A stretch of DNA of 64,000 nt, taken from Clostridia bacterium. GTDB lineage: Bacteria; Bacillota; Clostridia; CAKSNL01; HGM11501. Location: assembly GCA_045545475.1 (NCBI GenBank), contig JAZQAZ010000017.1:11973-75972 (forward strand), read 5' to 3'. Shown here in pieces: positions 9,170 to 54,943 of the stretch. Numbering within the stretch: the first letter of the stretch is position 1; each line of letters starts with the position of its first letter. The position numbers and the translations under genes are program-made. The notes beneath the pieces are model-generated. The model was given only the letters and a program-made list of their open reading frames with translations, ran no database searches and had not been told where the DNA came from.

Positions 9170-9176
9170 TCATTAC

Positions 9177-9206
9177 ACCGCTTGTCAATGGACAAGCGGT
9201 TTTTTT
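9177..9206 (+). terminator. Terminator of the rpsF operon
   Basis: ACCGCTTGTC/GACAAGCGGT plus T-tract. Confidence 0.85.
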
Positions 9207-9239
9207 CTTGCATTTCAACTTTCATAAAGCTTTCGATTT

Positions 9240-9276
9240 TGAAAGCGTTGACAAATAAAAGAAAATGTGTTATATT
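9240..9276 (+). promoter_or_regulatory. SigA promoter of GH39 gene with a cre/LacI-like site over the -35
   Basis: TTGACA-17-TATATT with TGn; TGAAAGCGTTGACA at 9240-9253. Confidence 0.65.
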
Positions 9277-9306: not shown

Positions 9307-10635
9307 ATGACAAAACTGACGGTTGATTTTTCTGAAATGAAAGGGAAAATTAAGCCTATGCATTCTGTAAATAACGGCCCTGTCGGAGGTACCTGGGGAG
9401 TTGGAAATGTTGAACTTTTCAAGGAAGCGGGAATTGCCTATGCAAGAAATCATGATGCTGCTTTTGCCTCGGCATACGGCGGGGAGCATGCTGTTGACGT
9501 ATCAAACATATTTCCTGATTTTGATGCAGACGAAACAAAGGAAGAAAACTATGATTTCGTGCTGACCGATGTTACCGTTAAGAAGTGTATGGAGGCAGGC
9601 ACAAAGGTTTTCTACCGTCTGGGACAGAAAATTGAACACGCCATTAAAAAATACGGAGTTAATCCCCCTGAGGATTTTAAAAAGTGGGCGGTTATCTGCG
9701 AGCATATCGTAAGACACTATACCGATGGATGGGCAGAGGGTTTTGATGCGGGAATAGATTACTGGGAAATATGGAACGAGCACGATAACGGCGAACCGGA
9801 TAAAAATCCCTGCTGGACAGGAACAATGGAACAGTTTTACGATTTTTATGAAGTGGCGGCAAAGCATCTTAAAGAACAGTTTCCCCATTTAAAAATCGGC
9901 GGTCCTGCAATGGTTGGCTCAACTCCCAACTATAAAAAGGCAGAGGAGTTTGTGTCGGAAATGGCAAAGCGAAATGTACCGCTGGACTTTTTCTCCTATC
10001 ATTTTTATACCACGAGTGCCCACGGAATGAGCTGGACGGCAAACTATACAAGAGAATTGCTTGATTCCTATGGCTATAGCGATACGGAAATCATCCTTGA
10101 CGAGTGGAATTACTGCACAGGATGGGACAGGGAAAATATGACACACTCCTATAAAACAATCCGTTCGCTCCGCGGTGCGGCATATGTAAGTGCCTGTCAG
10201 ATTGACGCACAAAAATCCCCTATCGATATGTTTATGTATTATGATGCAAGACCCGGCACAGGCTTTAACGGGATGTTTGAGCTTGGAACATATGAACCGA
10301 TGAAACCCTATTATTCCTTCTTAGCCTTCAACGAGCTTTATAAGCTCGGAGGCGAAACAAAGTCGGAAAGTGACGATAATGATGTTTATGTTCTTTCTGC
10401 AAAGGGCGATAAAAAGGCAGTTCTGATTTCATACTATGGTGCTGTGGATGCGGAAGATAAGGTTATAGAGCTTCATCTTTCGGGATTTGAAAAGCCGAAT
10501 AACAAGGTGTCCTATAAGATGCTGGATAACGAATATGATCTGGAACTTACCAAGGATGAATATATAAACGGCGAAGCAGTAACGCTTTACATTAAAATGG
10601 AAGCAAATACGGTGTTGCTTCTTACTATTGAATAA
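9307..10635 (+). CDS. GH39-like glycoside hydrolase (clan GH-A)
   Basis: ARNHD, WEIWNEH (acid/base), KIGGPA, DFFSYH, ILDEWN (nucleophile). Confidence 0.8.
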   Translation: MTKLTVDFSEMKGKIKPMHSVNNGPVGGTWGVGNVELFKEAGIAYARNHDAAFASAYGGEHAVDVSNIFPDFDADETKEENYDFVLTDVTVKKCMEAGTKVFYRLGQKIEHAIKKYGVNPPEDFKKWAVICEHIVRHYTDGWAEGFDAGIDYWEIWNEHDNGEPDKNPCWTGTMEQFYDFYEVAAKHLKEQFPHLKIGGPAMVGSTPNYKKAEEFVSEMAKRNVPLDFFSYHFYTTSAHGMSWTANYTRELLDSYGYSDTEIILDEWNYCTGWDRENMTHSYKTIRSLRGAAYVSACQIDAQKSPIDMFMYYDARPGTGFNGMFELGTYEPMKPYYSFLAFNELYKLGGETKSESDDNDVYVLSAKGDKKAVLISYYGAVDAEDKVIELHLSGFEKPNNKVSYKMLDNEYDLELTKDEYINGEAVTLYIKMEANTVLLLTIE

Positions 10636-12536: not shown

Positions 12537-12636
12537 AAAAATCATAAATATAGTATTTTTAGTAAAAAAAGACTTGAAATTTATAAAGATTTAGTATACA
12601 ATATAAAAGATAATAATAGTAGAAAGGATGATTATC

Positions 12637-13194
12637 ATGATATCTGCAGGTGAATTCAGAAACGGCGTTACCTTTGAAATGGACGGCAACGTATTCCGTA
12701 TCGTAGAGTTCCAGCACGTAAAGCCCGGTAAAGGTGCGGCTTTCGTACGTACAAAAATTAAAAACGTTATTTCCGGCGGTGTAATTGAAAAAACATTCAA
12801 CCCCACCGAAAAATTTGAAAAGGCTCACATCGACAGAAGAGAGATGCAGTATCTCTATAATGACGGCGAACTTTTCTATTTCATGGATCCCGAAACATTT
12901 GATCAGACTCCTTTGGGAGAAGACACACTTGGTGACGCCCTTAAGTTCGTTAAGGAAAACGACACCGTAACAATTCTTTCCTACAAGGGCAACGTATTTG
13001 CAGTTGAACCCCAGAACTTCGTAGTACTCGAAGTTACAGAAACCGAACCCGGCTTCAAGGGCGATACAACAACAAACGTTACAAAGCCTGCTACTCTTGA
13101 AACAGGTGCTGAAATCGCTGTTCCTCTCTTCATAGATATCGGCGATAAGATCAGAGTTGACACAAGAACCGGCGAATATATGGAGCGTGCATAA
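12637..13194 (+). CDS. efp: Elongation factor P
   Basis: [29 protein letters not shown]. Confidence 0.97.
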
Positions 13195-13200
13195 GCAAAA

Positions 13201-13407
13201 AATTTCAACAAAGAAATTTTTTGCGGGAATCGTCACGAGCGTTGAAGCGGAGTGACGATACAAAGGAAAAACCGAAGAGGTTTTTCTCGTGAGAATTTCA
13301 ACAAAGAAATTTTTTGCGGGAATCGTCACGAGCGTTGAAGCGGAGTGACGATAAAAAGGAAAAACCGAAGAGGTTTTTCTCGTGAAATTTCAACAAAGAA
13401 ATTTTTT
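13201..13407 (+). repeat. Tandem structured repeat, 93/92-bp period, two full units plus a third 22-bp terminal repeat
   Basis: AATTTCAACAAAGAAATTTTTT at 13201, 13294, 13386; near-identical intervening hairpin units. Confidence 0.95.
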
Positions 13408-13437
13408 ATTGAAACCCGATAGAAAGGTGGAAGAACT

Positions 13438-13833
13438 ATGAGCAAATTAACAGAAAAAGCTCAGTATCTTAAAGGTCTTGCAGAAGGTATAAACTTAAGC
13501 AAGGAAACAAACGAAGGAAAGCTTTTCGCTGCAATTATTGAAATGCTTGAAGAAACTGCTGCTGAATTAAAGAACGTGAAAGAACAGCTTGACGAAGTTG
13601 ATGAGTGTCTTGCTGATGTTGAAGATTTCCTTGACGAAGAATTAGATGATGAAGATGACGAGTATGATTTTGATGACGAAGGCATTTTCATTGAATGCCC
13701 CAAGTGCGGCGATAAAGTTTATGTGGAATTCGATGAAATCAACGACGATGCAACCGTAGATTGTCCTTCCTGCGGTGAGAAAATCGAAATTGAATTCGAT
13801 TGCGACTGCGAAGATTGCGAAGACTGCGAATAA
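13438..13833 (+). CDS. Acidic coiled-coil plus Zn-ribbon protein (CD1247-like)
   Basis: YLKGLAEG N-terminus, CPKC and CPSC pairs, D/E-rich; follows efp. Confidence 0.75.
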   Translation: MSKLTEKAQYLKGLAEGINLSKETNEGKLFAAIIEMLEETAAELKNVKEQLDEVDECLADVEDFLDEELDDEDDEYDFDDEGIFIECPKCGDKVYVEFDEINDDATVDCPSCGEKIEIEFDCDCEDCEDCE

Positions 13834-19521: not shown

Positions 19522-20844
19522 GTGGCTAAAATAACGGCGGATTTTACGAAAATAACAGGCAGAATAAAGCCGATGCACGGCGTGGGACAGCCTCCCATAA
19601 CGGGACTTACCAACGAAATGTTTCATTACCTTAAGGAAGCGGGGATTCCTTATGCCCGTCTTCACGATGTCGGAGGAATGTTCGGAGGCGGCTGCTTTGT
19701 TGATATTCCGAATCTTTTTCCCGACTTTGATGCAGATGTAAAAGATCCGGCAAGCTATACTTTTGAATTTACCGACAAATTAATCGAAGGTCTTATGGAA
19801 AACGGCTGTGAGCCCTTCTTCCGTCTCGGCATAACCATAGAAAATTATGTTGATGTAAGAGCATACAGGGTTGACCCGCCCAAGGATTTTGATAAGTGGG
19901 CGAGAATCTGTGAGCAGGTTATAAGGCACTATAACGAAGGCTGGGCAAACGGCTATAACTATGATATAAAATACTGGGAAATATGGAATGAGCCTGAAGG
20001 AAAGGCTATGTGGAACGCACCGTTTTCAGAATACTGCCGTTTATATGATATTACAAGCAAGCACTTAAAGGAGTGCTTTGGCGATAAAATAAAGGTGGGT
20101 GGTTATGCCTCCTGCGGATTTTACGCCCTTGATAAGGATCTTGAAATGACGGGAATCGGCCTTGATCCTTCCAACACTATGGAACGTTATATAAAAAACT
20201 TCTACACCTTTATGGAATATGTGTCGGAGCACAAATGTCCTCTTGACTTTTTCTCCTGGCATTCTTATTCTGCCGTTCACGCTGTAAAGCGCTATGGGGA
20301 GTACAGCCATAAAATCCTCGAAAAGTACGGCTATGGCAATATTGAAGAAATATTGAACGAATGGAACCCCTGCCACACTATGGAGAATAAAAAAGGCGGC
20401 TGGGCGGCGGCACAAAATCTTGCTATGATGCTCGGTATGCAAAAGAGCACCCTTACCATGATGAATTATTACGATGCAAGATGCGGCAGCTCTATTTTCT
20501 CCGGGATGTTCAATCCTGATACAAAGAAGCCCTATCCCAACTACTACGGCTTTATGTCCTTCAACAGCTTATATAGGCTTGAAAACGAAATAGAGGCAGA
20601 ATCTGATGATGCCAACCTTTTTGTAGGCGGAGCAACAGACGGCAAGAAGAAGGTTTTACTTCTTTCCAATATCAACGGAACGGAAACAGAAACCGAGTTT
20701 TGCATAAATGGTGCCGACATTTCGGATGTTGAAATTTTAATGATTAATGACGAATATGAATATTCTCCCACGGGCAAAGAATTTGTTGACGGAAAGCTTG
20801 TGATTCCTCCGCATACCTGCGTGGAAATCAAGTTTTATGCATAA
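19522..20844 (+). CDS. GH39-like glycoside hydrolase
   Basis: ARLHD, WEIWNEP, DFFSWH, ILNEWN. Confidence 0.8.
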   Translation: MAKITADFTKITGRIKPMHGVGQPPITGLTNEMFHYLKEAGIPYARLHDVGGMFGGGCFVDIPNLFPDFDADVKDPASYTFEFTDKLIEGLMENGCEPFFRLGITIENYVDVRAYRVDPPKDFDKWARICEQVIRHYNEGWANGYNYDIKYWEIWNEPEGKAMWNAPFSEYCRLYDITSKHLKECFGDKIKVGGYASCGFYALDKDLEMTGIGLDPSNTMERYIKNFYTFMEYVSEHKCPLDFFSWHSYSAVHAVKRYGEYSHKILEKYGYGNIEEILNEWNPCHTMENKKGGWAAAQNLAMMLGMQKSTLTMMNYYDARCGSSIFSGMFNPDTKKPYPNYYGFMSFNSLYRLENEIEAESDDANLFVGGATDGKKKVLLLSNINGTETETEFCINGADISDVEILMINDEYEYSPTGKEFVDGKLVIPPHTCVEIKFYA

Positions 20845-20854
20845 GGAGAGCACT

Positions 20855-22177
20855 ATGACTAAAATAAAAGCTGATTTTACAAAGATAACAGGAAAGATAA
20901 AGCCGATGCACGGCGTGGGACAGCCGCCTATGAACTTTGGCTCGGAAGAGCTTTTCCACTATCTTAAAGAAGCGGGCATTCCGTACTCCCGCCTTCACGA
21001 TGTGGGCGGATGGCTTGGTGGAGGACTTTATGCCGACATTCCAAATCTTTTCCCCGACTTTGATGCGGACGAAAATGACCCTGCCAATTACACCTTTGAA
21101 TTTACGGATATGCTCATCGGTTATCTTATGAAAGTGAACTGTGAGCCTTTCTTCCGCCTTGGCGTAACCATTGAAAACCGCTGGGATTTACGCTCTTTTC
21201 GTGTATTTCCTCCCAAGGACTTTCATAAGTGGGCAAGAATTTGCGAGCACGTTATAAGACACTATAACGAAGGCTGGGCAAACGGCTTTACATACGGAAT
21301 AGAATATTGGGAAATATGGAACGAGCCTGAAGGAAACCCCATGTGGCAAGGAACCTTTGAAGAGTACTGCGAGCTTTACGATATATCAAGCAAGCATCTT
21401 AAAAACTGCTTTGGCGATAAGATAAAGGTAGGCGGCTATGCCTCCTGCGGATTTTATGCCATCGACAAGGACCCTGATATGACAGGCATCGGGCTTGATC
21501 CGAAAAATACAAAAGAAAGCTACCTGGTAAACTTTCATAACTTTATGAAATATGTGTCCGAGCACAAATGCCCTCTTGACTTTTTCTCCTGGCATTCCTA
21601 TTCTGCTGTTCACGATGTTAAAAGATATGCTTCTTATTGTCACAGCGTTCTTGAAAAATTCGGCTACGGCAATATTGAAGAAATCATAAACGAGTGGAAC
21701 CCCTGCCATACCATAAAAAATAAACGTGGCGGCTGGGCGGCGGCACAAAACCTTGCGATGATGCTTGGTATGCAGAAATCTTCCGTCACTATGATGCATT
21801 ATTACGATGCACAAATAAGCTATTCCATTTTCTCAGGAATGTTCAATCCTGACCTTGGAATTCCTTATCCCAACTACTACGGCTTTATGTCCTTTAACAG
21901 TTTATATAAGCTTAAAGACGAGGTTTTCACAGAAACGGACGATGAAAATTTATTCATAGCCGGTGCGACAAACGGAAAGAAAAAGGTTCTTGTTATGTCA
22001 AACATCAACAATAAGGAAATAACGGCAGAGTTTGACATAACCGGGGCGGATGTTTCAGACGTTGACATATTTATGATAAATGACGAATACACTTACACGC
22101 TTACAGGCAAGGAAATAGTTGACGGAAAGCTTGTAATTCCCGCCAACACCTGCGTGGAAATTAAATTTTATAATTAA
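20855..22177 (+). CDS. GH39-like glycoside hydrolase (close tandem paralog of the previous gene)
   Basis: SRLHD, WEIWNEP, IINEWN; long identical blocks shared with the 19522 protein. Confidence 0.8.
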   Translation: MTKIKADFTKITGKIKPMHGVGQPPMNFGSEELFHYLKEAGIPYSRLHDVGGWLGGGLYADIPNLFPDFDADENDPANYTFEFTDMLIGYLMKVNCEPFFRLGVTIENRWDLRSFRVFPPKDFHKWARICEHVIRHYNEGWANGFTYGIEYWEIWNEPEGNPMWQGTFEEYCELYDISSKHLKNCFGDKIKVGGYASCGFYAIDKDPDMTGIGLDPKNTKESYLVNFHNFMKYVSEHKCPLDFFSWHSYSAVHDVKRYASYCHSVLEKFGYGNIEEIINEWNPCHTIKNKRGGWAAAQNLAMMLGMQKSSVTMMHYYDAQISYSIFSGMFNPDLGIPYPNYYGFMSFNSLYKLKDEVFTETDDENLFIAGATNGKKKVLVMSNINNKEITAEFDITGADVSDVDIFMINDEYTYTLTGKEIVDGKLVIPANTCVEIKFYN

Positions 22178-22188
22178 GGAGAGTTTTT

Positions 22189-23535
22189 ATGAACAGTGTA
22201 AAGGTTGACTTTTCCAAAATCAAAGGCGAAATGAAGGCACTTCACGGTGTATGCTGTGCACCATATTCCATTAATGCCGGTCCCAATCAGGGAGCGATTG
22301 ACAAATACTTCAAACAGGGGCATATTCCTTATTGCCGTCTTCACGACTGCACCGGCGGCTATGGCGGAACATACTTTATTGATATTCCCAATGTGTTCCC
22401 CGATTTTGATGCGGACGAAAACGATCCCGCAAATTATGATTTCCATTACAGCGATGAATACATAAAGGCAATCCAGGATTCCGGCTGCGAAGCTTACTAC
22501 CGCCTTGGTGTTACGATTGAGTGGGGAAGTAAAAAATATACTTCTGTTATGCCTTCTGACTTTTCAAAGTGGGCAAGAATTTGCGAACATATAATAATGC
22601 ACTATAACAAGGGTTGGGCAGACGGCTTTGAATATGACCTTAAATACTGGGAAATATGGAACGAGCCCGAAAACCCGGGAAATCAGTGGGGCCCCTGCCA
22701 GTGGAGCGGAACAAAAGAAGAGTTTTATGACCTTTACAGAGTATCTTCCAAATACCTTAAGGAAAAGTTTCCTGAAATTAAAATCGGAGGCTATGGCTCC
22801 TGTGGCTTTTACGCTGTTACAAGGGAGAAAATTCCTGAAGGACATAAGACCTTTGTGCCTTACTTTACAGACTTCCTCAAAATGATAAAGGAAGAAAAAC
22901 TTCCTCTTGACTTCTTTTCCTGGCATATTTATACCGGCGATGAGCTTGAATTACTTGCTCACGCAAAGTATGTAAGGGAGACACTTGATTCATATGGCCT
23001 TAATGAAACAGAGTCTCATCTTAATGAATGGAACATCCACGCCGAGGGAAGAGGCTTCCCCTCTAAGCACACAATGGAAGGTGCAAGCTTCAATGCGGCA
23101 GTTCTTTCAATGCTTCAGGAAACTCCCTATCTTGATAAGGCGATGTATTATGCTTTTCAGTATAGGACAGGCTACAACGGATTTACTAACCCCATCACTC
23201 ATGAAGCGCAGTATCCCTGGTTCTCCTTTGTGGCATTCGGCGAGCTTTATTCCCTTAAAAATCACGTTGATGTAGCTGTGGAAGGTGAGTACATCTATGC
23301 AACTGCGGCAACAAACGGAAAAACTTCCGGCGTTCTTTTATCGAACTTCAAAAACGAGGATGGCGTAATTAAAACCGAGCTTACGGGAATCCCCGAAAAT
23401 GCAACGGTTACACTTTACCGTATAAGAGAGGGAGAAATGCTTAAGGAGGATTTCTCTGTTTCTGCATCGGGAAATCTCGCACTTAAGATAAACCTTCCAT
23501 TATGGCAGGTAGCATACTTAAAAATAGAAGCATGA
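22189..23535 (+). CDS. GH39-like glycoside hydrolase
   Basis: CRLHD, WEIWNEP, DFFSWH, HLNEWN. Confidence 0.8.
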   Translation: MNSVKVDFSKIKGEMKALHGVCCAPYSINAGPNQGAIDKYFKQGHIPYCRLHDCTGGYGGTYFIDIPNVFPDFDADENDPANYDFHYSDEYIKAIQDSGCEAYYRLGVTIEWGSKKYTSVMPSDFSKWARICEHIIMHYNKGWADGFEYDLKYWEIWNEPENPGNQWGPCQWSGTKEEFYDLYRVSSKYLKEKFPEIKIGGYGSCGFYAVTREKIPEGHKTFVPYFTDFLKMIKEEKLPLDFFSWHIYTGDELELLAHAKYVRETLDSYGLNETESHLNEWNIHAEGRGFPSKHTMEGASFNAAVLSMLQETPYLDKAMYYAFQYRTGYNGFTNPITHEAQYPWFSFVAFGELYSLKNHVDVAVEGEYIYATAATNGKTSGVLLSNFKNEDGVIKTELTGIPENATVTLYRIREGEMLKEDFSVSASGNLALKINLPLWQVAYLKIEA

Positions 23536-27767: not shown

Positions 27768-28115
27768 GTCGGTCCATGTGGGCCACTGTTTTTGTGTGCG
27801 TTTTTGGGGCACATGAAGACAGACTACCGATGAAGCAGGAGGTTGCGGCAATGCCGGTTTTCCTGCCGAGGGAGTCCGATTCAGAGAAACCGGGCGAAAG
27901 CGCAAATGCTTTGCACAGAGTGGCATAAGTAAGAAGGGAAAGTGTGGAAACCTTCTGAAAGTGCGGATCCCGGCAAGCATGCCGGGAATTATAGTTGGGG
28001 TGGATGAAACACCCGGGCGAGTGTAAGGCGAGTTCTTCTGAGTCTCCTTGGGGTATATAATAATGAAGTAATGCCCTTAACCCAAAGCAAATAAAATAAG
28101 GAGGCGATTTTACTC
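27768..28115 (+). promoter_or_regulatory. Long structured rpsJ (S10) leader
   Basis: ~350 nt GC-richer 5' UTR with several hairpins and CGATGAAGCAGGAGGTTGC, resembling Firmicute S10 leaders. Confidence 0.65.
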
Positions 28116-50340: not shown

Positions 50341-50343
50341 GAT

Positions 50344-50589
50344 ATGAGATGTTAAAATACTCCGGACCGCAAAAAGACAGTTTATTTTATATATTCTTAC
50401 AAAGCTTAGGTATTAAAAGCGTAAAAAAGCAGAAAAATCGCCGTACGGCGATTTTTTTATTATGAGTCTTTTTGCTGCGAACAAACTTCACCACTCGGCG
50501 TATCACATACGCCTTCGGGCAGGCGTAAAAAACTGTAAGCAGTTTTTTACGTTCAGTTTGTCCGTTCCAAAGCATTTTTCCTATCTCAT
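50344..50589. repeat. Nested inverted-repeat intergenic element (REP/MITE-like)
   Basis: 24-bp perfect palindrome at 50433-50456 and at least five further inverted pairs. Confidence 0.6.
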
Positions 50590-50590
50590 G

Positions 50591-50626
50591 AAAAAGGGGC
50601 TGTAATTATTTCACAGCCCCTTTTTT
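50591..50626. terminator. Bidirectional terminator
   Basis: AAAAAGGGGCTGT/ACAGCCCCTTTTT. Confidence 0.85.
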
Positions 50627-50658
50627 GTTAATTTAGCGCTTACGGCCCGGATGTATGC

Positions 50659-52638
50659 TCAGCTCAATTTCTGTATGGTACGTTGTATCACCATTCTTTT
50701 CAGTTCGTCAGACAGATTCTGGAAGTATTCTGAATAGCCTCCGACGCGCACAATAAGATTTTTGTGCATTTCGGGATTTTTGTATGCTTCCATCAAGGTT
50801 TCCAATGAAGTACATGTAATCTGTATATGTATGCCTCCGCCATCCATATATCCTAAAATAAGAGCCTTCAGAGTGGCGTTTTTAAAATCGGGATTTATAT
50901 TAAAGTTAAGCACGGGGATGCCTAATGCGGATTTAAGATCGACAGAAGTTACGCTGTTCAGCAAAGCGGTAGGCCCTTCTGTATCTTTTCCGAAAATGGC
51001 ACCTAAAGAATCGCAAAGCGGAGAGCCTTTTTCTCTGCCGTCAGGGGTTGCACCTATATTCTTTCCTGCCCCCACCTGCGACATAAACTGAATTGATGCC
51101 GGTAAAAATCCTTCGCCTATATATGGCTTTTTATCATCAAGCATAGAAAATACATCAGAAGAAAGCCTGCTTGTAAAATTGTTGGCATCGGTATTATCGT
51201 TGCCGAAGCTCACTTTGTGATTTCTGGCATTTCTTAAAAATTCCTTATCGTTTGTCTTAAGCAGTTCGATGAATAACGGCACATCATAAAGCTTTTCCTC
51301 AAATATGAAATCGCGGATTACAAGCATTGAATCTATTACATTTATCATACCGGCAAAGTTTATGATACTCCATTTATACCTTGCTCCGCCATTGTTATAT
51401 TCCAATCCTAAGTCAATGCAGTCATCAATAAGCAGTGTACGCATCGGCAGGGGGTTATATTTTGCGCGCTCTCTTTGTGAACTGTTAATTTCTGCGGTTA
51501 CGGTTTCGACAACGGATGCCACTTCTTTAATGTAGCATTCGTAAAATTCTTCAAAGCTTTTTGAATCGGCGAGCTTTTCGTATATAACATTTTCCAGTAT
51601 TAAAAGCAGATTTATACCGGCGTCAAGTGATCCTACGTTTGAAAGTCCGGCAAGCATTGACTCGGTACAGCCGCCACCGCAGAATTTTTTTAAATCTTCA
51701 TCCTTGATAAACGGGAATTTGTTTTTAAATCCTTCAATTATTACTTTTTCGTTGTAAAAGGCGGGCTGTCCGTTGTTTGTTCTTACAATTTCAAAAGCCT
51801 TGTCCCATATTTCATCAGGAGTGCTGTCGTTTATGAAAAGCTCTGTCATAGGGCGTCTTTTGCCTTTGGAGGCTTCAAGGCACTGGAGAGTAATCGGATT
51901 GTAATCTGTGCCAAGAGCCATCGAATAGCCGTTATTGACATCTAAATTATCAAACAGGTTTTTTAGTAAATCAACAACACATTCACCGTTGTAATAAGGA
52001 TATAACCCGGAGGCTAAACAGCCGAGATTGTCGCAATTATCAAGATAAAGAATAAAATTCCACGAAACAATGGCTTCGTATATGTTTTCTGCAGGATAAA
52101 GAGGAACCTTATTTAATGCCTTTATCAGTTTTTCGTCGGCACAGGAGGCTTTAAGATAATCAAGGCACCGGGATATGTAGCATTTAATTCCTTCTATAAC
52201 GTGCATAAGACCTTCGCGCATATCTTTATCTTCAATTTTTTCAATTCTTTCTGCGTATGACAATAATCCTTCTTTTAAGATGCGCTCATAGTTTGGCATA
52301 GAATGTGTGTACATACTGCCTGCAACAGTATGCTCAACCGGAACGGACGGATGATATTTGCAAAAGTCAGACAGGAATTTGTTTGCCAGATCGGTATCTT
52401 TTTTGCATACATCATTGTAGTCTATATTCATCCCTGACATATATGATGGATATATGCTCATTCTTTTTGGAAGAATGCCCGACGGATACAAAGCTTTGCC
52501 TTCGTAGACAGCAAGCTCGCAGTTTTCGTAAAATCTTCTTATGCCCAATGCTTTTCTGTAAAAAAGACTTCTTTCTTCCTCTTCATACATTCCTGATGCA
52601 CCATATTCTCCGATAAGCTTAAATTTTTCTGAAATCAT
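50659..52638 (-). CDS. Glycyl-radical enzyme (PFL-like superfamily), short form
   Basis: Cys loop GGGCTE, GATPDGR, Gly loop LIVRVGGYS. Confidence 0.85.
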   Translation of the reverse strand: MISEKFKLIGEYGASGMYEEEERSLFYRKALGIRRFYENCELAVYEGKALYPSGILPKRMSIYPSYMSGMNIDYNDVCKKDTDLANKFLSDFCKYHPSVPVEHTVAGSMYTHSMPNYERILKEGLLSYAERIEKIEDKDMREGLMHVIEGIKCYISRCLDYLKASCADEKLIKALNKVPLYPAENIYEAIVSWNFILYLDNCDNLGCLASGLYPYYNGECVVDLLKNLFDNLDVNNGYSMALGTDYNPITLQCLEASKGKRRPMTELFINDSTPDEIWDKAFEIVRTNNGQPAFYNEKVIIEGFKNKFPFIKDEDLKKFCGGGCTESMLAGLSNVGSLDAGINLLLILENVIYEKLADSKSFEEFYECYIKEVASVVETVTAEINSSQRERAKYNPLPMRTLLIDDCIDLGLEYNNGGARYKWSIINFAGMINVIDSMLVIRDFIFEEKLYDVPLFIELLKTNDKEFLRNARNHKVSFGNDNTDANNFTSRLSSDVFSMLDDKKPYIGEGFLPASIQFMSQVGAGKNIGATPDGREKGSPLCDSLGAIFGKDTEGPTALLNSVTSVDLKSALGIPVLNFNINPDFKNATLKALILGYMDGGGIHIQITCTSLETLMEAYKNPEMHKNLIVRVGGYSEYFQNLSDELKRMVIQRTIQKLS

Positions 52639-52753
52639 AACAATCCCCTTTCTGCCTGATTAGATTTTACCCTAAACAAGCGGATTTGTCCATTGACATA
52701 TCTATTCATCATATGGTAAAATCATAACTGATAACAAGAGGGAGGGCGACAGA

Positions 52754-53560
52754 ATGCGATATGAGATTTTCTCTGACGGCAGTGCATCTTTGCTTAAACT
52801 GAATTCAATGGGAGTAAGCGGAGATGTGAATGTTACGAAATTCGGGCCTGCACGAAGAGATTTATATATAATTCATTATGTAACCAAAGGGAAAGGATAC
52901 TATAACGGTAATGAGGTAAACGAGGGAGAAGGCTTTCTTATATATCCCGGTCAAGATGAGGTATACTATCCTTCAAAAAGTAATCCGTGGGAGTTTTTAT
53001 GGATTATATCATCAGACGATGCCATGAAAGAAATCTTTGAAAGATATAATGCAGATTCAGATACATTGATTTTTAAGTATGATACCGTACCTGTGGCTAA
53101 AAAAATCGGAAGTATGATTATGTCTGAAAACGGAAAAATTTCAGACTCCCTTAAAATGCTGGAGATGTTTTTGCATATATTAAACAGTCATACATATACA
53201 AAGCTTTCATCGCAGCGCGTGCCCGACAGTGAAATATATCTGAATTTTTGCACAGGCTTTATTGAAACCAATATGCATAAGAAAATTACGGTGGAGGAGC
53301 TGTCACGTCTGGCAGGAATAAGCCAGCCTTATCTGCACAAAATTTTCAGGAAAAGATTTAATATGTCAACAAAAGAGTATATAACATGGTATAAAATGAA
53401 GAAAGCCAAAGAATTACTGATAGAAACAAGTATGTCGATAACCGAAATTGCAAATTCTGTCGGTTACAGTGATGTTCTCGCGTTTTCCAAGGCTTTTTCT
53501 TCAAAGGAAAATATGTCTCCGCAAAAATATCGGCAGCTTATGAAAAAAGACGGAGTTTGA
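52754..53560 (+). CDS. AraC-family regulator
   Basis: FGP..R..Y.IHYV..GKG, C-terminal HTH; divergent from the GRE gene. Confidence 0.9.
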   Translation: MRYEIFSDGSASLLKLNSMGVSGDVNVTKFGPARRDLYIIHYVTKGKGYYNGNEVNEGEGFLIYPGQDEVYYPSKSNPWEFLWIISSDDAMKEIFERYNADSDTLIFKYDTVPVAKKIGSMIMSENGKISDSLKMLEMFLHILNSHTYTKLSSQRVPDSEIYLNFCTGFIETNMHKKITVEELSRLAGISQPYLHKIFRKRFNMSTKEYITWYKMKKAKELLIETSMSITEIANSVGYSDVLAFSKAFSSKENMSPQKYRQLMKKDGV

Positions 53561-53577
53561 GCATAAGAATCTATTGT

Positions 53578-53612
53578 AAAAGGCAGAAACGATTTAATCG
53601 TTTCTGCCTTTT
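53578..53612. terminator. Bidirectional terminator
   Basis: AAAAGGCAGAAACGATT/AATCGTTTCTGCCTTTT. Confidence 0.85.
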
Positions 53613-53650
53613 GGATTTCTGTTTTTAATTGTTTAAAAGTGCATCCCGAA

Positions 53651-53916
53651 AAAATTTTCTCTATTGAAAATTTTAGCGATTCTTTTATAGAATGTGTATC
53701 TCGAAAAAATCCTGTTCGGATTTTTCATTGTATTGCCTACACCCTTGAACGCATTTTCGGCAATGTCGCTCAAAATTTTTCTTTGTTGAAAAAGTCAACA
53801 ATTCTTTTATAGTGTGAGCGTGCCGAAAAAATGCTATTCGCATTTTTCATTGTATTTCCTACACCCTTGAACGGGTTTCGGAAATTTCCGATAAAATTTT
53901 CTCTATTGAAAATTTT
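53651..53916 (-). repeat. Tandem structured repeat, 121-bp period, two diverged units plus three terminal repeats
   Basis: AAAATTTTCTCTATTGAAAATTTT-like repeat at 53651, 53772, 53893; homologous to the 13201-13407 repeat. Confidence 0.9.
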
Positions 53917-54943
53917 ATCTCTGTACTCTTCCTGATCCGTCGCCACCCATTAAGGTTTCAACTTCCTTAACGGTTACTCTGTTAAAGTCACCGATGATGG
54001 TGTGCTTTAAGCAGCTTGCTGCAACTGCAAATTCAAGAGCCTTCTTCATATCGTCATAGTTAAGAAGTCCGTAAATCAAGCCTGCACCGAAGGAGTCGCC
54101 GCCGCCAACTCTGTCAACGATATCCTTGATTTCATACTTCTTGGAAACGTAAAATTCCTTGCCGTCGCAGATACAAGCAGACCAGTCATTGTGGTTTGCA
54201 CTCTTGCTTTCACGAAGTGTGATTGCAATCTTTTCTGCGTTGGGATACATTTTAAGTACTTCCTTTGCAAGAACTTCGTACTTAGCTGTGTCAAGGTGAC
54301 CGCCTGTAACGTCGCTTCCTGCTTCGATGCCGAGTGACTTCTGGCAGTCTTCTTCGTTTGCGATGATTACGTCAACGTACTTAACAAGCTCTCTCATAAT
54401 TTCCTTTGCTTCCTTACCGTACTTCCAGAGGTTCTTTCTGTAGTTAAGGTCGCAGGAAACCTTTAAGCCCATTTCCTTTGCTGCCTTACAAGCTGCAAGA
54501 GAAACATCAGCTGCACTCTGGGAAAGAGCGGGGGTGATACCTGTGATGTGGAACCACTCTGCACCGTCGAAAATCTTCTTAAAGTCGAAAAGATCGGGTG
54601 TTGCAAGAGCGATGGAAGAATAGGCTCTGTCATAAATTACCTTGGAAGGTCTCTGGTTAGAGCCTGTTTCAAGATAGTATGTACCGAGTCTGCCTTCGGA
54701 ATATACGATATCGGAAATATCAACGCCGAAGCCGCGAAGCTGGCAGGTAAGTGCATATGTAATGTCATGCTTGGGAAGAGCGGTAACGTACTTTGCTTCC
54801 ATACCGAAGTTTGCAAGAGAAACTGCAACGTTTGCTTCACCGCCGCCGAAGGTTGCCTCAAGCATGGGGGACTGCATGAATCTTTCAAGACCGGGAGACT
54901 TAAGTCTTAACATAATTTCGCCGAGTGTAACAACTTTTTTCAT
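53915..54943 (-). CDS. kdgK: 2-keto-3-deoxygluconate kinase (PfkB)
   Basis: [32 protein letters not shown]. Confidence 0.9.

Follow-up and report, generated by a model that had tools for sequence, protein, structure and literature searches.

We identified a repeat module of ~95 nt in a 64-kb stretch of DNA from a Clostridia bacterium (contig JAZQAZ010000017.1; hereafter the window). The module consists of three consecutive hairpins, R, A and B, with an ACAA linker between A and B. It occurs in the window as two tandem arrays, one directly after efp, the gene for elongation factor P (array A), and one directly after a PfkB-family sugar kinase gene (array B). Its invariant loops, its compensatory stem changes and its position at stop codons suggest that the module may be a low-copy, resident, structured RNA of 3′ untranslated regions (UTRs) and intercistronic spacers, with loops read by a putative trans factor. 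We hold this reading with about as much doubt as confidence.

Array A takes up nearly the whole intergenic spacer between efp and a gene for a CD1247-like protein. The features of this locus are as follows.

12628–13194, plus strand: efp (elongation factor P); Pfam EFP_N/EFP/Elong-fact-P_C; NCBIfam TIGR00038, 257 bits.
13195–13224, plus strand: first R of array A; core palindrome AAATTTC-AACAAA-GAAATTT at 13200–13222, with a flank-extended 12-bp stem.
13223–13292, plus strand: unit A1; hairpin A at 13229–13259 (loop GTTGAA), linker ACAAAG, hairpin B at 13266–13286 (loop GAAGA).
13293–13315, plus strand: second R of array A, 96% identity.
13316–13384, plus strand: unit A2; hairpin A at 13322–13352, linker AAAAAG, hairpin B at 13359–13379.
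13385–13407, plus strand: terminal R of array A, 100% identity; the start codon of the next gene is 30 nt on.
13438–13833, plus strand: co-oriented downstream gene for a 131-aa acidic CD1247 N-terminal domain/zinc-ribbon protein; NCBIfam NF045650.

Tandem Repeats Finder reported 13200–13407 as a repeat of period 93 with 2.2 copies (97% matches, score 400). A repeat search resolved the same DNA into two 93-nt copies (13201–13293 and 13294–13386, 98% identity) and three 23-nt copies of R (13200–13222, 13293–13315 and 13385–13407; 100, 96 and 100% identity). Together with the exact 8-bp arms of hairpin A (ATCGTCAC/GTGACGAT) and hairpin B (GAAAAACC/GGTTTTTC) in the efp units, these searches bear out an earlier note on this DNA, which had described three R copies alternating with two units after efp. 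A1 and A2 were 98% identical over the full 93-nt copies and 96% identical over R plus the unit core. Two positions differed between them: the linker has C in one and A in the other, and one nucleotide is deleted at the 3′ end. A perfect assembly duplication is therefore an unlikely source of array A. The assembly artefact that the earlier note had considered is further opposed by independent assemblies that carry one to three units at the kinase locus.

The first R of array A was lengthened by its flank into a perfect 12-bp stem (13195–13206 with 13213–13224), which starts one base past the efp stop codon (TAA, 13192–13194). A scan of the spacer between efp and the next gene found no plus-strand terminator-like site and no promoter-like site. 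We observed that a 256-codon open frame runs antisense through efp into array A (12559–13329, minus strand); it has no gene support and is a trap for callers of open reading frames (ORFs). The product of 13438–13833 is very acidic, ends in a C-terminal CxxC zinc ribbon and had no Pfam match. A small-ORF reading of the units was rejected: a GTG after loop B of A1 opens 19 codons, the frame in A2 is shifted by the 1-nt deletion, and the kinase-type units have no equivalent.

Array B (53651–53919, minus strand) comprises two diverged units, and its reverse complement aligns with the efp units over R, both hairpins, both loops and the linker. Its features are listed in the direction of the kinase gene.

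53915–54943, minus strand: PfkB-family sugar kinase gene, 2-dehydro-3-deoxygluconokinase (KDG kinase)-like; Pfam PfkB; NCBIfam KDG-kinase models, below cut-offs.
53893–53916, minus strand: first R of array B, AAAATTTTC-AATAGA-GAAAATTTT.
53794–53892, minus strand: unit B1; loop A GTTCAA, linker ACAATG, loop B GAATA, followed by a tail of ~30 nt that is conserved and unstructured.
53772–53793, minus strand: second R of array B, TTTTTC-AACAAA-GAAAAA; exact core at 53778–53791.
53676–53771, minus strand: unit B2; loop B GAACA, with compensatory stem changes compared to B1.
53651–53674, minus strand: terminal R of array B, from the R-core search and the profile search.
53577–53613, no strand assigned: two-way intrinsic terminator with a 17-bp stem, which would end the kinase transcript (after array B) and that of a convergent AraC-family gene.

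A second, diverged array had been placed at 53651–53916 by the earlier note. It is there, with R, the loops and the linker kept, and it lies on the minus strand. Its first R forms an extended 12-bp stem (53890–53919, GATAAAATTTTC/GAAAATTTTATC), and the kinase stop codon (53915–53917) lies within this stem. Array B ends ~40 nt before the terminator. At both loci, as the note had also stated, the array is sense to the upstream gene and starts at its stop codon. B1 and B2 were 76% identical over R plus the unit core. Covariance model R1 matched all four units: A1 (13197–13293, 95.6 bits), A2 (13290–13386, 92.3 bits), B1 (53820–53917, 111.1 bits) and B2 (53698–53797, 96.3 bits).

R is an AU-rich palindrome with an invariant core, TTTC-AAYARA-GAAA, and a single G-C pair. 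Hairpin A carries a GTTNAA hexaloop closed by C-G, above an internal loop. Hairpin B has an A5/U5-6 stem and a GAANA pentaloop. We aligned ten units: A1, A2, B1, B2 and six from related loci in other genomes (L024 units 1–3, L005, L017 and L011 unit 1; these loci are described below). All ten units are related and they represent only about six independent sequence types. Over a 28-pair structure, 95.0% of the 280 cells were standard pairs, compared to a shuffled mean of 86.2%, and 10 of the 28 pairs changed on both sides and stayed paired. The covariation that the earlier note had proposed to look for is thereby present, among related sequences only. On four of five measures, the observed value was attained by none of 500 shuffles; these shuffle statistics are inflated because the ten units are related and the structure was derived from them. 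When the 3′ partners were slid as a control, pairing was 38–62%. The covarying columns included the following pairs.

Columns 37–65, U-A/C-G; 38–64, G-C/U-A; 39–63, C-G/U-A; 47–56, C-G/G-C.
Columns 74–94, A-U/G-C; 79–89, U-A/A-U; 80–88, C-G/G-C.

One further covarying position lies in the internal loop of hairpin A (A-U in B1 and B2, G-C in L005, A-A in L017), flanked by G-A and A-G. Run independently on four full-length kinase-type units, RNAalifold recovered hairpin B, the R on either side of the unit and, of hairpin A, the apical part; it predicted no structure in their 30-nt tail. The paralogues B1 and B2 still keep their pairs at 76% identity, and the efp-type units were 59–70% identical to all other units.

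The invariant positions were mostly unpaired. They comprise the R core, loop A (GTTNAA) with its C-G closing pair, the AT-ACAA linker and loop B (C-GAANA-G); TTTT-CG at the end of hairpin B was also invariant. The loops, the linker and the R core did not vary over the ten units, which come from three lineages and are 59–79% identical overall. In loop B, the fourth base alone varies (G, U or C). Variation restricted to the fourth base is the signature of a GNRA-like pentaloop, such as that of lambda boxB, in which the fourth base is flipped out. Loop B also resembles lambda boxB in being G-A-A-N-A closed by C-G, a likeness of the loop only, which we take as a lead and not as evidence; no N-like protein, nut-site context or boxA was identified for the module.

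Two further observations point to selection on the module. The first R recruits its flank into a perfect 11–12-bp stem, and the sequences of these stems differ at efp, at the kinase locus of the window and L024, and in L005, which argues that the hairpin itself is selected. In addition, the L017 unit was 81–82% identical to B1 and B2, compared to 74% at the fourfold-degenerate sites of the adjacent kinase gene (148 sites), a margin that suggests modest constraint.

Other structural candidates were rejected. A K-turn in hairpin A needs the tandem G-A/A-G that is possible in the efp-type units only, the kinase-type units having a symmetric 4×4 internal loop. A pseudoknot between loop A and R (GTTGAA with TTCAAC) likewise pairs in the efp-type units only. 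For a hammerhead or other ribozyme, the junction strands were unconserved and no Rfam ribozyme matched.

The earlier note had also proposed that a helix, TTGCGGGA/TCTCGTGA, closes hairpins A and B into a three-way junction. This helix is present in the efp units and pairs, G-U included, in units of the efp and B1 types. The ten-unit alignment gave little sign that it is conserved: 75% of cells were paired, compared to a shuffled mean of 69.8% (reached by 19 of 500 shuffles), and only two pairs changed on both sides. Slid controls gave 63–70% towards 5′ and 19–52% towards 3′. RNAalifold did not predict the helix, which competes with the base of hairpin B. With closure by the half-R arms, the efp units are predicted to fold into a closed three-way junction at −32 kcal/mol. 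Because L005 keeps an intact unit without a trailing R, this half-R closure is not essential.

We searched for further copies with a loop/linker pattern, GTTNAAG-N10-ATANAANG-N7-CGAANAG. The pattern matched four times in the window (0.00 expected, 100 shuffles). The R core with up to two mismatches matched seven times, six of them inside the two arrays (2.71 ± 1.61 expected). Profile and covariance-model searches of the 64-kb window found no copy beyond the two arrays; a weak model match at 9173–9250 (18.4 bits) was rejected as an ordinary terminator/promoter region. The loop/linker pattern was then scanned against 185,579 species genomes, where it matched 24 loci. Four were true. The other 20 lacked any profile match at E ≤ 0.01; they appear to be chance matches in coding sequence, in agreement with the ~17 chance matches estimated for this pattern. 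The strict pattern found one locus per assembly in each of four assemblies. Further genomic copies, which the earlier note had suggested looking for, are thereby found in related genomes, as three relatives of the kinase locus plus L011.

L024, flank identity to the window 94.7–96.2%: kinase locus, three units and four R.
L005, flank identity to the window 95.3–95.9%: kinase locus, one unit with leading R and without trailing R.
L017, flank identity to the window 81.4–86.4%: kinase locus, one unit, tail and degenerate R.
L011, no homologous flanks: two units, flanked by and antisense to a [FeFe]-hydrogenase-like gene on one side and a GntR/ABC operon on the other.

Arrays A and B and those of L024, L005 and L017 are co-oriented with the upstream gene, whose stop codon is 0–6 nt from the array start. 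In all four genomes, the kinase-locus array has the stop codon on one side and an intrinsic-terminator-like hairpin on the other, and the terminator of L017 is non-homologous. In L017, ~3.4 kb of neighbouring DNA is absent and the terminator is different, and the repeat module after the kinase gene is kept. Comparison of window 50343–53774 with L017 2599–2636 showed that L017 is without the glycyl-radical-enzyme gene (50659–52638) and the AraC-family gene (52754–53560). In L011, unit 2 retains only half an R, and ~55 nt are inserted in its loop B.

The loop/linker pattern found no efp-type unit in L024, L005, L017 or any other of the 185,579 species genomes. Distant-mode blastn with both arrays found no match in the plasmid and phage collections. 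By these searches, the module family is small and rare, and it is confined to a few Clostridia that are related to one another. In L011 we also observed, at ~2040–2410 on the minus strand and directly downstream of the module, two promoter-like boxes (GCTATTGACT, 17 nt, TATACT), one of them at 2407–2379. Each is followed by 100–230 nt of non-coding, hairpin-rich DNA ending in T runs. No Rfam family reached its gathering score there, and these may be unannotated small-RNA genes.

The number of units at the kinase locus is two in the window, three in L024, one in L005 and one in L017. Chimeric units occur in both L024 and L005. In L024 unit 1, the 5′ part matches B1 and the 3′ part matches B2, and the changeover falls within the apex of hairpin A, which is conserved. 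In L005, the unit combines a 5′ part of B2 type with a hairpin B of B1 type, and the deletion there joins two TTTTTTCG stretches. The junction of the extra unit in L024 is an R with an R3-type left flank and an R1-type right flank. The chimeric units, and the presence of one, one, two and three units at one orthologous locus, show that unequal homologous recombination, both among units and among R copies, alters the length of the arrays.

The earlier note had read the layout of n + 1 R copies around n units as an insertion that duplicates R. The rule holds in four of six arrays; it fails in L005 (R and unit, no trailing R) and in L011 (half R, no trailing R). In front of each of the 11 units stands at least the 3′ half of R. 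Three unrelated loci (efp, kinase and L011) share an identical R core, TTTCAAYARAGAAA, and R is therefore module sequence rather than a target-site duplication, contrary to what the insertion idea supposed. The trailing R is the start of a truncated further copy, as the 2.2 copies reported by Tandem Repeats Finder indicate.

At efp and the kinase locus, the position of the arrays would place the sense strand within the transcription unit of the upstream gene; transcription itself we infer from this layout. Transcription of the preceding gene may extend through the module, which would then form a 3′ UTR or an intercistronic spacer, and the transcript would fold into the three hairpins. A putative RNA-binding protein or ribonuclease could then recognise the conserved loops and linker, and might set the processing or stability of the host mRNA or free unit-length stable RNAs. 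With the first R on or just past the stop codon, a terminating ribosome would have to melt R, which may couple the fold of the first unit to translation.

Several observations weigh against a resident 3′-UTR RNA, in addition to the inflated shuffle statistics noted above. The lack of efp-type matches in the genome scan agrees more with recent acquisition at efp than with long residence there. Upstream of the L011 copy no gene runs in its direction, and a promoter-like site there is weak (9/12); a 3′-UTR mechanism is therefore inapplicable at L011 unless that copy is a relic. Unit number varies from one to three among genomes ~95% identical, and dosage is therefore loosely constrained. Both strands fold about equally (z = −8.6 compared to −8.0 for array A, and −7.4 compared to −7.2 for array B). 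The alignment contained 12 G-U cells and no A-C cells, with 95.0% pairing on the sense strand and 90.7% on the antisense strand. These counts mildly favour sense RNA (plus-strand RNA at efp), which agrees with the suggestion of the earlier note. However, a single pair at the base of hairpin B, seen in related units, accounts for six of the 12 G-U cells, and outer R pairs account for another four; the strand call therefore reflects few independent events.

The module fell outside the named Rfam families, as the earlier note had supposed. A search of the whole window against Rfam 15 at gathering scores returned only the S10-Clostridia ribosomal-protein leader (RF03136, 40.6 bits; 27822–27899, plus strand), which lies upstream of a ribosomal-protein cluster and is in keeping with a Clostridia origin of the window. 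A permissive Rfam search of 13100–13500 gave a lowest E value of 1.6 (ylbH, 13.7 bits compared to a gathering score of 50) and a top score of 18.4 bits (HAR1A, E = 9.7, compared to 40). The same search of 53550–54000 gave nothing near a gathering score on the units, and its better matches centred on the terminator at 53577–53613. The four related loci gave no Rfam match. No model reached its gathering score on either array or on these loci. A tRNA-like reading of the GCGGGAA start was rejected, as ARAGORN found no tRNA or tmRNA genes. No R or unit hairpin was listed as an intrinsic terminator on the sense strand, and hairpin B was listed only antisense in the efp array. In the literature (the R core string and surveys of structured RNAs) we found nothing naming the module, a result that cannot prove it unpublished.

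The module resembles candidate structured RNA motifs of the Rfam type in its compensatory stems, conserved loops and narrow taxonomic range, and it behaves as a conserved structured RNA across the ten related sequences. It is unlike such motifs in having no Rfam match, and its position 3′ of genes and its palindrome-bounded tandem repetition are unusual.

The domain scan that bears on several alternatives covered 46 of the 73 ORFs in the window; the other 27, in 27.4–43.6 kb, are mostly of ribosomal-protein size. One alternative is that the module is a non-autonomous mobile element, of the MITE (miniature inverted-repeat transposable element), repetitive extragenic palindrome (REP)/bacterial interspersed mosaic element (BIME) or BOX kind, which inserts by stop codons, multiplies its internal module in tandem and depends on a transposase elsewhere in the genome. 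We consider this unlikely. The module does occur at three unrelated loci, its efp-type copy is unmatched in three related assemblies whose kinase copies were matched, and array A fills nearly all of the efp spacer with units so similar (96–98%) that they suggest recent duplication. However, the high copy number raised by the earlier note was not found: there are two loci in the 64 kb and, by the strict pattern, a single one in each related assembly, far from the tens to hundreds of copies of a REP family. The kinase locus is occupied in all four genomes down to ~81–86% flank identity, which argues for vertical inheritance, and the efp-type units, at 59–70% identity to the others, are no recent copy of any unit seen. 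A MITE would be bounded by a site-specific target duplication, whereas the R core is the same at every locus, and no other direct repeat was seen outside the outer R copies on reading the flanks of both arrays. Transposase, Y1_Tnp and recombinase domains were absent from the 46 scanned ORFs, including the transposase that the earlier note had proposed to look for, and the plasmid and phage collections were without a match.

The REP and BIME elements of enterobacteria are like the module in being hairpin-forming tandem repeats between genes, just past stop codons or between the genes of an operon. They share a transcript with the gene before them and are considered to influence mRNA stability, and translation of that gene can be reduced by REPs near its stop codon. 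REPs, however, are single, GC-rich hairpins in hundreds of copies of alternating orientation and are linked to RAYT transposases. In contrast, the module is AU-rich and low in copy number, with three different hairpins, sequence-conserved loops and units all in the same direction. [quoted passage not shown] As there described, BOX is likewise a composite repeat with a strain-variable tandem internal module (PMC3049150), a trait seen at the kinase locus and one that favours a mobile origin. BOX has distinct terminal modules and is described as an interspersed family with terminal inverted repeats and target duplications (PMC3049150), whereas the module ends in R only, has no target duplication and exists in few copies; the two are set apart by description.

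A bolder form of the structured-RNA reading takes the arrays as precursors. In keeping with the suggestion of the earlier note that R copies may be processing sites, cleavage in the AU-rich R loops would free unit RNAs, whose half-R ends would close three-way junctions; these RNAs, derived from 3′ ends of housekeeping mRNAs, might titrate or guide a putative protein through GTTNAA and GAANA, with output coupled to translation termination at the first R. We regard this as rather improbable.

It is more doubtful still that the arrays are a selectively neutral tandem duplication of hairpin-rich intergenic DNA, without a function of its own. Unit number varies freely among close relatives (1, 1, 2 and 3), unit 2 of L011 is degenerate, and the family is very rare, all of which such an origin would allow. 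Nevertheless, neutral DNA would not be expected to show compensatory changes in 10 of 28 pairs, or loops and a linker that stay invariant across lineages 59–79% identical. The L017 unit is also more conserved than the fourfold-degenerate sites of the neighbouring gene, and the array was retained in L017 though the adjacent 3.4 kb and the terminator were replaced.

We give as little weight to the possibility that the functional transcripts are antisense, with the kinase-type R supplying a −35 box (TTGAAA), the tail supplying the −10 box, and each unit acting as a small RNA gene directed towards the kinase. An antisense sigma-70-like site was present in all six tail-bearing units (two in the window, three in L024 and one in L017). 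The sites are at 53664–53693 and 53786–53813 on the plus strand of the window (10/12 matches each), at 2709–2680, 2587–2560 and 2467–2438 on the minus strand of L024 (10/12) and at 2587–2558 on the minus strand of L017 (9/12). Their −10 boxes read TAGAAT, TATAGT or TAGAGT, and the tail is conserved in sequence without predicted structure, as a promoter would be. However, the efp array, L005 and the element part of L011 had no such site, and the trait is not family-wide. The six tail-bearing units share descent, and the site totals are within shuffle expectation (3 compared to 1.4 ± 1.3 in the window region, and 3 compared to 1.8 ± 1.5 in L024). In the alignment, the −10 hexamers of B1 and B2 do not coincide (spacers 16 and 18 nt), and an antisense RNA would turn the 12 G-U cells into A-C mismatches.

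A role at the DNA level appears very unlikely. Here R would be the core site of a site-specific recombinase or a dimeric DNA-binding protein, and the units would be cassettes, as in integron attC or Xer/dif systems. R has the geometry of a recombinase core (9-bp inverted arms and an asymmetric 6-bp spacer), R copies bound the units, and the L024 junction R combines R3-type and R1-type flanks. However, the chimera breakpoints in L024 and L005 lie inside units and not at R, which is the signature of homologous recombination, and the R spacers differ within an array (AATAGA and AACAAA), which would block exchange. Covariation within the units needs a folded single strand, and no recombinase was found in the 46 scanned ORFs. 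The arrays are also unlike CRISPR arrays: the intervening units are homologous to one another (96% at efp, 76% at the kinase locus), and no Cas domain was found in the same 46 ORFs.

The least credible alternative, which we come close to dismissing, is a type III antitoxin-like RNA array, cut into units by an endoribonuclease toxin that it neutralises: the tandem structured RNA-like units with AU-rich boundaries resemble the head-to-tail repeats of ToxI, CptI and TenpI, and the half-R ends of a cut unit are complementary (the efp units closing at a predicted −32 kcal/mol), but those antitoxins sit upstream of their toxin gene, whereas the arrays follow housekeeping genes, and no ToxN-, CptN- or TenpN-like or defence protein lies beside either array or L011. 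Known type III antitoxin repeats are ~36–45 nt, and the 93–122-nt units of the module are about two to three times longer. Downstream of array A are the CD1247-domain and ArsC/Spx-like proteins; downstream of array B are the terminator and the convergent AraC-family gene. PADLOC assigned no defence or toxin family to any of five window neighbours, and only generic wHTH/ABC-ATPase families to two L011 neighbours.

Elsewhere in the window we observed four GH39-like glycoside-hydrolase paralogues (9307–10635 and 19522–23535, plus strand), three of them in tandem. They adjoin GH43, GH35 and melibiase-like genes and form a plant-polysaccharide utilisation cluster.

If the module is a functional RNA of 3′ UTRs and intercistronic spacers, it would enlarge the non-coding repertoire of uncultured gut Clostridia, which is poorly charted, by one structured motif that has no name. 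Such a motif would be unusual, lying 3′ of genes and not 5′, with three hairpins bearing sequence-specific loops and a tandem arrangement. Covariance model R1 provides a means to find and count further members of the family, whose R-bounded arrays automatic annotation could mistake for CRISPR arrays or MITEs. The abutment of the arrays on stop codons suggests a link between translation termination and the fate of mRNA 3′ ends. Should the arrays prove to be precursors of unit RNAs, these would form a class of regulatory RNA new to Clostridia and to RNA families at large, encoded by repeats and derived from mRNAs.

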